A stretch of DNA of 64,000 nucleotides from Dictyostelium discoideum (taxonomy: Eukaryota), in the NCBI GenBank assembly GCA_000004695.1, contig CM000151.3:8416001-8480000 (forward strand), read 5' to 3'. Shown in pieces: positions 57,198 through 63,430 of this stretch. The notes beneath the pieces are model-generated. The model saw only the letters and a list, made by a program, of their open reading frames with translations. It was not told the origin of the DNA and did no database searches. How positions within the stretch are numbered: the first letter of the stretch is position 1; every line of letters starts with the position of its first letter. The position numbers and the translations under genes were made by a program.

Positions 57198-57831
57198 TTT
57201 CTTTCTTTTTTTTTTATTGAAACAATCCACAAGATAAAAAAAAAAAAAAAAAAAAATAAAAAAAAAAAAAAAATTAATTTTTCGTGCGAGAAATTAATTT
57301 TCAAACTATTTGTGCATAAAATTATTTAAAATTTGTTTTAATTTAAAAAAAAATAATAAAAAAATAACTTTTTCTTTTTTAATCAAATTTTAAATTGTTT
57401 ACTTAATCGCACACTTTTCCTATTTTGAATTTTTAAACCTCAAGGTTATCATAATAATATAAAAAATCAAGCAAAAATTTGGAAATTGTTTTTTTTTTAT
57501 TATAATAAAGGTTAGTTCATTTGAACAGTTTTGTTTACTAAAAAAATTATTGTTAAAAAAAATTATTGCTAAAAAAAAAATAAAAATAAAATTATAAAAA
57601 TAAAAAAATAAAAAATTATAATTTTCGAAGTTCATAGATATTTTGGTATGACAGGACAAACTTGTAAAAATTAAAAAAATTTGGGTGAAAAAAAAAATAT
57701 CAAATAAATTTTCTTTTTTTTTTTTTTTTTAATTTTATTTTTAGTAATCAAAAGATCTTTTAATCGATTTGGAGTTATAAAAAATGAATAATGTTACAAT
57801 TAATTTAGTTTTATTTACTATTTTTTTTTTT

Positions 57832-57955
57832 AAAAGATTTAAAAAAAAAATTTCCCCCTATTTTTAATATTGTTTTTTTAAAAGATTTAAAAAAAAAAAC
57901 TCCCCTATTTTTAATATTATTTTGTTAAAAGATTTAAAAAAAAAACTTTTTTACT
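57832..57955. repeat. 47-bp tandem repeat, 2.6 copies.
   Basis: aaaagatttaaaaaaaaaa[t]ttcccc[c]tatttttaatatt[g/a]ttttgtt is repeated head-to-tail at 57832, 57880 and 57927. Confidence 0.8.
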
Positions 57956-57984
57956 TTTTTTATTTTATTATTAATATTTTGAAA

Positions 57985-58125
57985 CCAAAAAAATAAAAAA
58001 TTAATTTAAAAATAATAAATTTTTGATTTTTTGGTTTAGTTCTATTAACGTCATACTTATAATTATCTGTTCGTATGTTTATTTTAAAGATTCGAATCTT
58101 TAATTCTTGCTATCCTTTTAACATC
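57985..58125 (+). repeat. Copy 0 of a ~170-bp module that also starts each large repeat unit (58860..59000 and 61660..61800).
   Basis: ttgattttttggtttagttctattaacgtcatacttataattatctgttcgtatgtttattttaaagattcgaatctttaattcttgctatcc aligns with ctgattttcggtttagtttcataacgaccttactttaatattatgtatgtttattttaagatacgagtctttctctatttctatccc at 58895 and with the copy at 61690. Identity is about 75%. Confidence 0.7.
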
Positions 58126-58140
58126 TTTCACTTAAAAATA

Positions 58141-58712
58141 AATACATTGGACCTTTCTGTGAATAATTGAATTAATTCTGAAAAAAAAAAGTTATTTTGA
58201 AAAAGATCGAGTTATCCCGGAAAAGATCAATCTTTTCGCTAAAAATTTTTCATTGGCCATATTATTTTTTTTTTTTAATTTTTTTCATTTATTCACAATT
58301 AAAATAAAAAATATAAAAATAAATAAATAAAATAAATAGTATGATTGACAAAAAAAATCAAAAATACCCCGGTAGGATTTATTTTTTATATGTAGTTTTT
58401 TTTTTTTGAAGTTCCTTTTTTTTTTTTGAAGTTCATTTTTTTTTATATTTTCTTTATTTCTCTATAAATACAACCAAATTTAATTCTACGATAGGTCTTA
58501 ACAAATATTGTTTAATATTATTTAAAATTTTTGTTTTAAATAATGTGTTTTATTAAAAAAAAAAAAAAACATGTGAAAAGTGAAAAATTTTTCAAAAAAA
58601 AATAAACTTTTTTCGAAATAACTGAATTTATTCCGGGATAACTCGATCTTTTTTAAAATATGCTGAGTTAATTATAATTAATTCAATTATCCACTGATAG
58701 GTCCATTATCAT
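58141..58712. mobile_element. About 570-bp element bounded by ~80-bp imperfect terminal inverted repeats (MITE/foldback-like, non-coding).
   Basis: The left arm 58141..58220 (cattggaccttt ctgtgaataattgaattaatt ... attttgaaaaagatcgagttatcccgg) is the reverse complement of the right arm 58633..58712 (ccgggataactcgatcttttttaaaat...aattaattcaattatccac...aggtccattatc). The inner 22 bp (aaaaagatcgagttatcccgg) is perfect, and overall arm identity is about 80%. The interior of about 410 bp is AT-rich with no ORF. It sits exactly between module copy 0 and the start of repeat unit A. Confidence 0.6.
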
Positions 58713-59526
58713 TTTTGTTAGAGACTCAAAACTAATTTAATTTTAAAGTTAGTATGAGCCCCAACAACTTTACAAATTTGCGCGTCTCCATGTAAAAATA
58801 TTTCATTTAATTTTAATTTTTATTTTTTAATTTTTTATTTTTTAAGTCGAAAAATAAAAAATTAAATTAAATTAAAATTTAAAAATAATAAAAATTCTGA
58901 TTTTCGGTTTAGTTTCATAACGACCTTACTTTAATATTATGTATGTTTATTTTAAGATACGAGTCTTTCTCTATTTCTATCCCTAACAATATAAATAATA
59001 ACGATTGATGAAGATTGATGAAGATTGATGAAGATTGATGAAGATTGATGAAGATTGATGTAGATTGATATAGGATTAGATAGATTGGAATAGTGCCAAT
59101 GACTTTTATTTTAACATAAGATGGAAATATTAAATAAATAATTAGATACAATCTTTATATAATTGCCTATACAATGACACCTCATGATGAAGAAGTCGAC
59201 TCTTCAGATTAGAGGAATAACAGTAGTATTTAAAACAAAATAAAAATGCATTACAATGGCCCTTCTGTTTGCAAGATTAACGCTGTACTGCTTAGGCGGT
59301 ACAACGACACTTCCTACTCACATTGTAAACATGCATCTTTTATAAAGTAATATAAAATAAGATTGTATCAATTAATTTAATAATATTCTAAATATAAACA
59401 ATGACACCTCAAACAGAGGAATAACTGTGTTGTTATATAAAAACAATGACACCTCAAACAGAGGAATAACTGTTATATAAAAGCAATGACACCTCAAACA
59501 GAGGAATAACGGTATTGTAATAATAT

Positions 59527-59748
59527 TAAGACACCACAATATATAATATTAGTGGAATAACAGTTAAACAAAGACACCACAATATAAATTATTAGTGGAA
59601 TAACAATTAAACAAAGACACCACAGTATAAATTATTAGTGGAATAACAGTTAAACAAAGACACCACAATATAAATTATTAGTGGAATAACAGTTAAACAA
59701 AGACACCACAGTATAAATTATTAGTGGAATAACAGTTATATAGATGTA
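59527..59748 (+). repeat. 43-bp tandem minisatellite (about 5 copies) inside repeat unit A, preceded by 3 copies of a related 33-bp repeat (59398..59512).
   Basis: caaagacaccaca[a/g]tataaattattagtggaataacagttaaa repeated head-to-tail. The related unit is caatgacacctcaaacagaggaataactgt. Unit B has a single copy at 62189..62231. Confidence 0.85.
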
Positions 59749-60008: not shown

Positions 60009-61195
60009 ATGACATCAACTACTACTCTTTCAAAGATAGCCATCCGTAAAGCCAAAGTGTCTTCCACCGCCAAATGTGCCGCTGAAGTGACCTCTGCCTC
60101 CGATGAAGCTATTTCTGTCCAAGCCAAACCAAAAAAGACCCTTCATCCCACTGAAGACGATGATTAACTTTATACTACCGAAAGCACGGACCTATCCGAG
60201 GCTGAAGTCAGAGAGAGAGCCTAAGAATTCAAAGACAACTCCATTGAAGCTAAAACCATTGATGCTTTTAAAAAATGATACCACTGCCTTCATCTTCATG
60301 AATCTCTTTACCATCTACTTCCCCCTGTCTCCTCCCCCCAACCCAACCTTGATGACCATTATGGACAATGTACTACATCAAATGAATTATTCCATTTGCT
60401 TCAACCTGACCAATATGAATCAGTGAAGAACAACGATAATTTGAAGGTGTAACTTTGAGGAAGCTTATCCACCGTAACTTTAGACCCAAGACTTTGGTTC
60501 CCGTCAAAACTGACTACGAAGCTGCTAAAATTAAAGTGGTCTAAGCCATTAGCCATTGTAACAACCACTCAGCCTAATATGTTAAAAAAAACATCGAAGC
60601 AAATATGAGTTACAACAATGTAATTAATCCGATGTATCTCATCCATGGTACTGCTGATGTTCAATTAGATTATCTAAGATCAATTTTAGATAATAATATC
60701 CTTGCTTTGTTAAAGATGGTTATACCAGACTGGTTACAAACTGATGTTGCAATCAAGCTCAACCCTCAAACCGATATCACCGAGTGTCGTGAAGCTATCA
60801 CCGAGTTGGTTCTTTTCAATACTGATAAGTTTTCTAGAAGAAGATCTTCCGATTCGGCATCGAATACTGATGAGAAGTTTCCAATGAAAAATAATCATGC
60901 TGTTCCAAATCATAACTCTCAAAGCAGGAATCACTTAGAGCTGAAATATAACCAAAGGTAAAAGATAATAAAATGGTAAATATCAACAAGATAAGAAACA
61001 GTTACATTGTTTATCGTCATAGCAAAGGCTATTGTCTCAATTGTAGTCGTTCAAATTACTCTACATCTTTATGTAATGCCGATACTGTCAAGGTCAAAGT
61101 CAATCCATCAAGTCCATAAGCCAAAAAGCAACAATGACTCGATGAAGGTGATGAGTACAAGTCTAAGATTTTAAATAAAAATTATAAAATTTCAC
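60009..61195 (+). pseudogene. Degenerate copy (copy A) of the repeat-encoded ORF, with multiple in-frame stops and frameshifts.
   Basis: It aligns to the unit B ORF (MTSTTTLSKIAIRKAKVSSTAKCAAEVTSASDEAISVQAKPKKTLHPTEDDD* versus MSSTTTPSKKAIRKAKVSSTAKRAAEVTTASDDAITVQVKSKKTLRPTEVDDE...). There is a TAA at 60164, further stops and frame changes so that three ORF-track pieces (60103.., 60605..) lie in different frames, and C->T-biased divergence at about 80% identity. The 3' part extends about 230 nt beyond the copy B ORF end. Confidence 0.7.
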
Positions 61196-61199
61196 AATA

Positions 61200-61510
61200 T
61201 CATCACCCCGAGAAAATGGATGGTAAAGAGATTCATGAAGATGAGAGCAGTGGCAGCATTTTTTTAAAGCATCAATGGTTTTAGCTTCAATGGAGTTGTC
61301 TTTGACTTCTTTGGCTCTTTCTACCTGACTTCGAGTTTGGATATGTCAGTTCTTACAGTTGTATAAATTTCTTCATCGTCTCCAATGGGATGAAGAGTCT
61401 TTTTTGATTTCACTTGAACTTGGGTAGCATCATCCGAGGCGAATGCACTTCAGCAGCACATTTGGTGGTGGAAGACACTTTGGCTTTACGAATGGCTTTT
61501 TTTGAAAGAG
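61200..61510 (-). repeat. Inverted partial copy (5' ~300 nt) of the repeat-encoded ORF, head-to-head with repeat unit B.
   Basis: The reverse complement of 61380..61510 reads ...aaaaaaagccattcgtaaagccaaagtgtcttccaccaccaaatgtgctgctgaagtgcattcgcctcggatgatgctacccaagttcaagtgaaatcaaaaaagactcttcatccc... It matches the N-terminal coding sequence of copies A and B. It is degenerate (stops) and breaks off after about 100 codons. Confidence 0.65.
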
Positions 61511-61519
61511 TAGTTGTTC

Positions 61520-63430
61520 TAGACTCAAAACTAAATTAATTTAAAGTTAGTATGAGCTCAACAACGTAACAAATTCGCGCATCTCCATGTAAAAATATTT
61601 CATTTAATTTTAATTTTTTATTTTTTCATTTGAAAAATAAAAAATTAAATTAAATAAAATAAAATTAAATTAAAATTTAAAAAAATAATAAAAATTCTGA
61701 TTTTCGGTTTAGTTTTCATAACGCCCTTACTTTTAATTATCTCTTTTATATATGTTTACTTTTATGATATTAGTCTTTCACTCTTTCTATCCTTCATATT
61801 AAAAAACATTACTTTAAAGATTGGACAGTTTGATTAAAGATTGAACAAATGTGACAATGGATTGAAGATTAGTGTGAGTGAATTTTACACTTTTTTTTCT
61901 AATTTTAACATAAAACAAATACATTAAAACAAATAATTAGATACAATCCTTATATTTCGTATACAATGGCACCTCATGATGAAGAAGTCGACTCTTCAGA
62001 TTAGAGGAATAACAGTAGTATTTAAACAAAATAAAAATGCATTACAATGGCCCTTCAGTTTGCAAGATTAACGCTGTACTGCTTAGGCGGTACAACGACA
62101 CTTCTTACTCACATTATAAACATGCATCTTTTATAAAGTAATATAAAATAAGATTGTATCAATTAATTTAATAATAATGCTCAAATACAAAGACACCACA
62201 ATATAAATTATTAGTGGAATAACAGTTAACATATATTAATACTTATATTAATTATTTAATTAAAAATTAAATTAAATTAAATTAAATAAATTAAATTAAA
62301 TTATAAAATTAAATTATAAAAATTAAATTATAAAATTAAATTATATTTAATAAATTTTATATATAATTGTTGGTGAAAGTCATGTCATCAACTACTACTC
62401 CTTCAAAGAAAGCCATCCGTAAAGCCAAAGTGTCTTCCACCGCCAAACGTGCCGCTGAAGTGACAACCGCCTCCGATGATGCTATTACTGTTCAAGTAAA
62501 ATCAAAAAAGACTCTTCGTCCCACTGAAGTCGATGATGAAATTTATTCAACTGAAAGCACTGATGTATCCGACGTCGAAGTCAGAGAGAAAGTGCCAAAG
62601 AAATCAAAGACCAATTCCATTGAAGCTAAAACCATTGACGCTTTAAAAAATGCTGCCACTGCTGTCATCTTCATGAATCTCTTTACCATCCACTGCTCCC
62701 AGAATGGTGTTGAACCAACCTTGAAGACCATTATGGACAATGGTGCTGCATCAAATGAATTATTTCAATTGCTTCAACCTACCCACAATGAATCAGTTAA
62801 GAACATTGAAGAAGGTGGAGCATTGAAGAAGCTAATACACCGTAACTTTATATCCAAGACTTTGGTTCCATTCAAAACTGACTACGAAGCTGCCAACACT
62901 AAAGTAGTAGAAGCTATTAACCATCGTAACTGCTACTCAGCCCAAGATGTTATAAAAAACATCGAAGCCATTATGAGTTACCACAATGTAATTAATCCGG
63001 TGTATCTAATCCATGGTACTGCTGAAGTTCAATTAGAGTATCTAAGATCAATTTTAGATAATAATATCATTGCTTTGTTAAAGATGGTCGTACCAGACTG
63101 GTTACAAACTGATTAATCAAACTCAACACTCAAACCGATATCACCGAGTGTCGTGAAGCCTTCACCGAGTTGGTTCTTAACAATGCTGATAAGTTCTCGA
63201 GAAGAAGACCTTCCGATTCCGCATCGAATACTGATGAGAAGTTTCCATTAAAAAAGAATCATGCTACTCCAAATCATAACTCTAATAACAGGAATTCCTT
63301 TGATGCACAAGCTGATAAGATTAGAGCTGCAATATTACCCGAAATAAGAAAAGACTCTAAGGTAGACCTCAAAAAGATAAGAAGCAGCACAGCGGCGAAA
63401 ATCAACACTTTAAAGCACCTTTAAATCCAA
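61520..63430 (+). repeat. Repeat unit B, the compact version of unit A: upstream module 61520..62381 plus the ORF.
   Basis: Collinear with unit A apart from the minisatellite copy numbers. See the unit A evidence. Confidence 0.75.
62382..63424 (+). CDS. Repeat-element-encoded ORF (copy B, best preserved). 245 codons to a TAA at 63117, then about 100 further codons in frame after the stop (63120..63424).
   Basis: ATG at 62382 (MSSTTTPSKKAIRKAKVSSTAKRAAEV...HGTAEVQLEYLRSILDNNIIALLKMVVPDWLQTD*). Relative to copy A (..LQTDVAIKLNPQTDITECREAITELV..), copy B has an indel converting GATGTTGCAATCAAGCTCAACCCTC to GATTAATCAAACTCAACACTC, which creates the TAA. Downstream ...KLNTQTDITECREAFTELVLNNADKFSRRRPSDSASNTDEKFPLKKNHATPNHNSNNRNSF... 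continues the homologous frame (ORF 63170..63424). Basic N-terminus. I recognise no enzymatic motifs. It may be a nucleic-acid-binding ORF1-like protein of a retroelement. Family not identified. Confidence 0.5.

Follow-up and report, generated by a model that had tools for sequence, protein, structure and literature searches.

A ~590-bp inverted-repeat element in ancestrally subtelomeric DNA of Dictyostelium discoideum chromosome 2, possibly the relic of a MITE-like DNA transposon

MITEs such as Tourist and Stowaway are shorter than 800 bp, AT-rich and free of ORFs, carry terminal inverted repeats (TIRs), form hairpins and are found next to genes and other transposons. The Ginger2 elements Tdd-4 and Tdd-5 of D. 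discoideum have long TIRs; Tdd elements measure 3.8 kb, encode an integrase-like transposase and are characterised by TIRs of 260-297 bp, TGTNR termini and 5-bp duplications (PMC2836005). The same genome harbours thug-S/thug-T, a small and poorly characterised class of DNA transposons, and the thug, DDT and Tdd families account for 0.1%, 0.9% and 0.5% of the genome, respectively (PMC5633606). Foldback (FB) elements fold into long hairpins and consist for the most part of their very long arms, which are built from tandem sub-repeats. Here we describe an element of about 590 bp that has features in common with several of these systems. It resembles MITEs in its size, AT-richness, TIRs, missing ORF and hairpin formation, in its position next to a gene and other transposons, and in a terminal module that also occurs elsewhere as a discrete unit; it has long TIRs and the host in common with Tdd-4/Tdd-5, and long hairpin folding with FB elements. 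In contrast to MITEs, it has no target-site duplication and no demonstrated family of near-identical full-length copies, its arms are long (~100 bp) and only ~77% alike, and part of its interior is a fragment of a retrotransposon LTR.

The inverted repeat proposed in a preliminary description of the locus was recovered at the same place in the window (the whole 64-kb stretch analysed) by a repeat search (117 nt, 73% complementary without gaps, spacer of 354 nt, outer limits in Table 1), by gapped local alignment, which spanned the same 117 nt, and by BLAST, in which the left and right arms were 77% identical over 102 nt. The arms had been described as about 80 bp long and about 80% identical around a perfect 22-bp core. 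They are indeed long and contain a perfect core, but the discrete unit within each arm measures ~97 nt, complementarity of 73-77% extends over ~97-117 nt, and the core (AAAAAGATCGAGTTATCCCGGAA) is 23 nt long. For this core, 100 shuffles gave an expectation of 0 matches, and no further copy was detected in the 64-kb window at up to 3 mismatches; the terminal block GGACCTNTCNGTGNATAATTGAATTAATT was likewise confined to the two arms within the window. Conservation between the arms is concentrated in two blocks, the terminal block at 58149-58177 and the subterminal core, separated by diverged DNA that cannot be aligned.

Table 1. Features of the inverted-repeat element, its flanks and the ~750-bp TIR family (positions in the window unless a fetched locus, L001-L008, is named).
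Feature	Position	Strand	Remarks
Left arm, diverged copy of the ~97-nt module	58142..58240	+	Given from outer to inner end; 77% to reverse complement of right arm
Left arm, weaker complementarity	out to 58133-58249		
Right arm, best-kept copy of the ~97-nt module	58611..58707	-	Outer end 58707 (...GGTCCATT); 96.9% over 97 nt to solo copy L002:5093-5189, homology stopping sharply at both ends
Right arm, weaker complementarity	out to 58604-58720		
Perfect 23-nt subterminal core	58200..58222	+	AAAAAGATCGAGTTATCCCGGAA; matched at these two sites alone, chance expectation 0
Partner of the 23-nt core	58631..58653	-	
Interior, ~370 bp	58241..58610	.	Non-coding, very AT-rich, 10-17% GC
Left flank ('copy 0'), degenerate partial Skipper-type LTR	57948..58117	+	LTR positions ~93-293, ~75% identity; outside the element
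Right flank (start of 'unit A'), 5' LTR of Skipper-1-type retroelement	58716..59105	+	Outside the element
Copies of the ~750-bp TIR family	L003:3417-4163, L003:1512-2270, L001:12707-13396, L001:14372-15143, L008:4133-4891, L008:5928-6673		

When the stretch 58125-58725 (601 nt) was folded as single-stranded DNA, a check suggested in the preliminary description, it formed one long hairpin with a stem of ~100 bp and an energy of -91.6 kcal/mol, compared to -57.6 +/- 3.3 kcal/mol for shuffled sequences (z = -10.4). The ~97-nt module by itself folded like shuffled sequence (z between +0.2 and -1.8). Each arm amounts to ~17% of the element and no tandem sub-repeats were found in the arms, which sets the element apart from the foldback class, one of the two classes to which the element had been likened. 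The AT-rich composition and the lack of coding capacity held up, the longest ORF overlapping the element being 36 aa; a 36-aa ORF running across the left arm had no record in public assemblies. Neither a tRNA nor an Rfam family was detected in the element, the latter even at E<=1. Other inverted repeats of 70-80% in the window were low-complexity or coding-repeat matches, or pieces of Skipper gag.

The inverted repeat is real and lies far beyond what chance would produce. Chance or low complexity was rejected on the shuffle counts for the core and the terminal block and on the hairpin z-score, and an assembly artefact was rejected because the element is identical (661/661) in the independent AX2/AX4-like assembly GCA_054883475.1 (L003). 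A structured RNA gene was discarded on account of the missing tRNA and Rfam matches and of the shuffle-like folding of the module, and a coding exon because stop codons interrupt every reading frame of the module except one, which is itself disrupted in the two remaining copies.

Skipper sequences border the element on both sides, and part of its interior is Skipper-like. The first ~127 nt of the interior (58240-58366) resemble positions ~75-195 of the Skipper LTR, with a score of 88 compared to 46.7 +/- 10.4 for composition-matched controls, 0/300 of which reached 88, while the remaining interior bears no likeness to the LTR. A 20-bp unit (T12GAAGTTCA) is repeated 2.5 times at 58396-58444. 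The left flank was assigned to a Skipper-type LTR by matches to LTRs in loci L001, L008 and L009. The right-flank LTR, whose 3' boundary is approximate, begins with TGTTAGAG 8 bp past the right arm, and its segment 58716-58997 matches both LTRs of the Skipper copy in L001 (8920 and 16937). Since the complete relative in L001 carries gag, RT/RNase H and two ~400-bp LTRs, it is a Skipper-type Ty3/gypsy element. A second unit ('unit B') also opens with a Skipper 5' LTR, at 61515, and the sole long ORF in the vicinity (62367-63116) matches 'Gag' proteins of D. discoideum at 96-100% identity, among them DDB_G0277781 (8.48-Mb chromosome 2).

The arms themselves are independent of Skipper: compared with the Skipper LTR and internal region they scored 23-30, with no excess over composition-matched controls (24-27 +/- 4), and a derivation of the arms from the LTR was therefore rejected. 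A 7-mer, ATTGGAC, which arm and LTR have in common at a similar offset, was not significant. The preliminary description had named a larger palindromic rearrangement of the surrounding repeat as the alternative to autonomous termini; this alternative was dismissed, given that the flanking Skipper LTRs are in direct rather than inverted orientation and that the arms are not Skipper sequence. It had further suggested that the element inserted into the larger repeat or mediated its rearrangement. The coordinates of the flanking LTRs are not contiguous (~93-293 on the left, position 1 on the right), hence a simple insertion into one LTR does not fit, and we found no evidence that the element mediated a Skipper rearrangement. 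It is more likely that 'unit A' arrived by a Skipper integration 8 bp beyond the right arm.

Several tandem and inverted arrangements were observed around the element. A 47-48-bp tandem unit occurs three times just left of the left-flank LTR fragment (the range of the array starts at 57825 and ends at 57969), an array of (GATTGATGAA)x6.7 is located in the unit-A LTR at 59003-59069 and is absent from unit B, and tandem units of 40-43 bp (2.8 and 4.9 copies) lie in the Skipper 5' untranslated region at 59392-59738 and are reduced to a single copy in unit B. Three copies of the 5' ~300 bp of Skipper gag, with 84-92% identity, are present at 60017-60320 (forward), 61214-61518 (inverted) and 62390-62692 (forward) and would allow two potential hairpins with stems of ~300 bp and loops of ~0.9 kb.

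The gene next to the element is the phosphoglycerate-mutase-like gene DDB_G0277763 (55400-57230, minus strand), and the element is located ~900 bp upstream of it. To compare the locus between genomes, this four-exon gene was rebuilt and orthologous loci were taken via its protein from six assemblies; a single-exon query retrieved only short plant and metagenome proteins, so that the rebuilt full-length query was needed. The AX2/AX4-like locus L003 was collinear with the window up to and including the Skipper units. The divergent isolates and sister species ceased to resemble the window at ~57615, with one exception, a solo copy of the module in the wild 'D. discoideum' isolate GCA_054859385.1 (L002), whose identity to the right arm extends over exactly 97 nt (Table 1). 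Homology ends abruptly at the inner (TTTCGAAAT...) and outer (...GGTCCATT) end of this copy, its flanks are unrelated to those in the window, and its orientation relative to the neighbouring gene is opposite. The left arm, the right arm and the solo copy together delimit a discrete module of ~97 nt. For comparison, identity between these two genomes amounts to 84.5% in the gene region and to 67.7% in the spacer just upstream; at a divergence of 15.5%, the probability of at most 3 mismatches in 97 nt is ~9e-5. Such an identity of 97% amid diverged DNA would be expected of a recently active repeat family or of a constrained terminus. Because the right arm is 97% identical to the foreign solo copy and only 77% identical to its own partner, the pair is not a recent local inverted duplication.

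Contig JBTAPG010000080.1 of a third strain (GCA_054859355.1, L004) starts only 2-3 nt past the position that corresponds to the outer end of the solo copy (L002:5189-5192), which is consistent with an unresolved repeat or a structural junction at this point. D. citrinum and D. firmibasis lack the module upstream of their ortholog. The gene models next to the solo copy were rebuilt with unique GT-AG solutions, and their exact proteins had no entry in the collection. At the same locus we observed a 171-bp tandem repeat of 2.7 copies (L002:391-844) and ~9 copies of a 19-20-bp repeat, TTTTTTTTGGGTGTACCCCTC, which resembles the published telomere unit GAGGAGAGAGTCCCTTTTTTT (L002:1165-1360); a unique, GC-richer stretch (L002:900-1900) adjoins these tandem repeats ~4 kb from the solo copy. 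Rfam gave no match here.

The search for other copies, likewise proposed in the preliminary description, thus yielded the solo module in another lineage with unrelated flanks, but no second full-length element in the window and ~170 kb of fetched Dictyostelium loci. Beyond the three copies, no further arm copy was found in the same sample, which includes 63 kb of transposon clusters rich in DIRS, Skipper and DDT (L001, L008, L009). Concerning target-site duplications, the flanks ...AAATAAATAC (left) and ATCATTTT... (right) have no 2-, 4-, 5- or 8-bp repeat in common. A 3-bp duplication (ATT) would require GGACC...GGTCC as the ends of the element and is ambiguous; as ATT also follows the solo copy, the triplet is more likely part of the unit than a duplication. 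Both module-bearing loci are situated 1-5 kb upstream of the same gene, a neighbourhood that a low-copy family scattered at random would hardly be expected to have and that speaks for local descent.

With respect to the known classes, the TIRs (~97-117 nt, 73-77%), the small size and the lack of coding capacity agree with MITEs, and to this extent the MITE signature claimed earlier stands; the missing target-site duplication and the missing second full-length copy do not support it. Tdd-4/Tdd-5, whose termini had been suggested for comparison, were excluded by the termini of the element (AATGGACC / ATTGGACC instead of TGTNR), its arms of ~100 bp instead of 260-297 bp and the absence of a 5-bp duplication (PMC2836005), and no similarity was found between the element and the loci bearing rve/H2C2 genes (L001, L009). 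The most plausible catalogued home for such an element would be the thug class. The thug-S miRNA hairpin (miRNA_can_D3, PMC4894637) was absent from both strands of the window at up to 3 mismatches, and thug-S was rejected since this multicopy miRNA is missing.

A different family of non-coding TIR elements was encountered in the same sample. It is ~750 bp long, has ~25-bp TIRs starting with CACAGCAAAGAAAAA and is represented by six full copies (L001, L003, L008) of 90-97% identity, each with a clean 2-bp target duplication (AC, AA, TG, TT, AT, TA). It is possibly the non-autonomous DDT-S, a name we propose from size and abundance. Like the element described here, it is non-coding and found among Skipper fragments of the same genome, but it has different termini, no similarity to the arms, multiple copies and target duplications, and it illustrates how an established non-autonomous DNA transposon looks in this genome and how easily it is found in ~170 kb. 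Compared to the window, L003 contains a 747-bp insertion of this ~750-bp element in Skipper gag at 63113/63115, where the window reads ACTGAT-T-AATCAA and the intact unit A (60743-60756) ACTGAT-GTTGC-AATCAA. The window looks like it carries the footprint of an imprecise excision, in which case a DNA transposon would be active in laboratory strains; the difference could also be an artefact of the reference assembly.

In every other Dictyostelium genome examined (L002, L004-L007), the ortholog of DDB_G0277763 is the last or nearly the last gene before the end of the chromosome or contig: contigs end 0.5-14 kb from the gene in L002, L004, L005 and L006, and in D. firmibasis telomere repeats are found 2.7 kb upstream of it (L007 38-500). 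The window therefore spans an AX4 junction between an ancestral chromosome end and an 'inner' DIRS/Skipper block. According to published work, all other genomes yield the two halves of AX4 chromosome 2 as separately assembled pieces (PMC12745789), the region is prone to breakage and contains DIRS/Skipper/rDNA 'wound-healing' sequences (PMC2665215, PMC11193728), and the 'inner' DIRS/Skipper/rDNA block of AX4 at the chromosome-2 border has been reported to contain two Skipper fragments of 4.9 kb in total (PMC2665215), which match units A and B. The element is located in ancestrally subtelomeric, rearrangement-prone DNA. As a separate observation, the published small RNA miRNA-like_D4 (UCGAACUAGUCCAAUCUUUAAU), for which map positions at chr2:3,773,252 and at the beginning of chromosomes 3, 4 and 6 have been given (PMC4894637), nearly matches, at 5 edits and thus at the limit of the search, the Skipper LTR motif TTTAAAGATTGGAC(A/T)GTTTGA at 61810-61833 of the window and at L001:9229, L001:17246 and L008:9324, which suggests that this RNA may derive from Skipper-LTR-like sequence at chromosome ends.

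Our preferred, albeit tentative, explanation is that a small non-autonomous DNA element of the cut-and-paste type (class II, MITE-like) decayed at this site and could have left the present element, or a pair of its terminal modules, as a relic. At the least, it consists of two inverted ~97-bp terminal modules around ~370 bp of junk DNA, part of which is Skipper-LTR-like. Ends that bind a transposase usually show such conserved terminal and subterminal blocks. A transposase provided in trans would have recognised GGACCTWTCWGTGRATAATTGAATTAATT (terminal block) and AAAAAGATCGAGTTATCCCGGAA (subterminal core), cleaved the DNA at the outer ends (AATGGACC...) and reinserted the unit elsewhere; the Skipper-1 retrotransposon would have integrated later, 8 bp from the right end. 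The anatomy of the inverted repeat, the discrete nature of the module, its third copy and its independence from Skipper are shown, while we infer mobility, transposase binding and this order of events; the element now appears to be immobile. The sharp edges of the module, its near-identical copy in a new context, the block-wise conservation and the independence from Skipper speak for a MITE-like origin. Against it stand the missing target duplication, the missing full-length or dispersed copies in the sample, the ~77% identity of the arms, the heterogeneous interior and the confinement of all known copies to within 5 kb of one gene.

The last of these points is also the starting point of the strongest rival, a locus-specific subtelomeric rearrangement scar, according to which the ~97-nt sequence would be old chromosome-end DNA that was duplicated in inverted form and shuffled by breakage, repair and fusion and was never mobile. 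The three known copies are all found 1-5 kb upstream of one and the same gene, in each of the other genomes this gene adjoins the end of a chromosome or contig, with the telomere repeats of D. firmibasis 2.7 kb upstream and the telomere-like 19-20-bp repeats of L002 at the same locus as the solo copy, the chromosome-2 halves are separate elsewhere (PMC12745789) in a breakage-prone region (PMC2665215, PMC11193728), and dispersed copies were not found in the sampled loci. However, a recent local duplication predicts that the two arms are most alike and the reverse was observed (77% between the arms compared to 97% with the solo copy), homology to the L002 copy stops sharply with no residual similarity in the flanks, and the sequences flanking the inverted repeat both point the same way. 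An identity of 97% amid non-coding DNA of 68-85% identity would furthermore demand an additional assumption, namely selection or gene conversion. We consider a scar unlikely, though it deserves to be weighed seriously next to a MITE-like relic.

It is improbable that the arms are termini or fragments of an already catalogued repeat, i.e. thug-T, thug-S, DDT or the extrachromosomal rDNA palindrome that caps chromosome ends, in which case the finding would already be known. Such repeats are available in the genome in the proportions given above for thug, DDT and Tdd (PMC5633606), sequences of the rDNA palindrome and of DIRS have been reported at this chromosome-2 border (PMC2665215), and the high identity between lineages fits a multicopy source. 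Yet the small-RNA sequences derived from thug-S are absent from the window, the abundant ~750-bp TIR family (possibly DDT-S) has other termini and no similarity to the arms, the termini of Tdd-4/5 do not fit (PMC2836005), and no arm copy was present in the 63 kb of DIRS/Skipper/DDT-rich clusters.

A conserved functional element would be either a protein-binding site (regulatory, insulating or end-protecting) or a hairpin RNA feeding the RNAi/small-RNA machinery. The module is 97% conserved next to non-coding DNA of 68-85%, the whole element would form a hairpin with a ~100-bp stem, and small RNAs derived from repeat hairpins are documented in D. discoideum (PMC4894637, PMC5633606); this reading is nevertheless very unlikely, because the module alone folds no better than shuffled sequences and has no Rfam match, is absent upstream of the ortholog in D. 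citrinum and D. firmibasis, and forms a pair that is not maintained, as evident from the heavily decayed left arm.

Least probable of all, the module might be the conserved, end-defined recognition end of a transposase-like or site-specific breakage-rejoining activity at the ancestral chromosome terminus, which would jointly explain 97% conservation across lineages that differ by 15-30% in non-coding DNA, the unrelated flanks and the contig break. The module sites and the contig break fall where the two halves of AX4 chromosome 2 join, and the sharp outer boundary of the module would then mark the point of chromosome-end cutting and rejoining.

The transposases and the mobility of Dictyostelium DNA transposons have barely been studied. 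If the element is a MITE-like relic, it would add a minor and probably dead family to the short list of DNA transposons in this organism; it would be at most a new low-copy member of a known element type, and no new mechanism is indicated. The element is mainly of value as a landmark, for it marks exactly where unique chromosome-2 DNA gives way to the 'inner', centromere-like repeat block, and since other strains and species have a chromosome end at this place, its copies could help to reconstruct the fusion or healing event.
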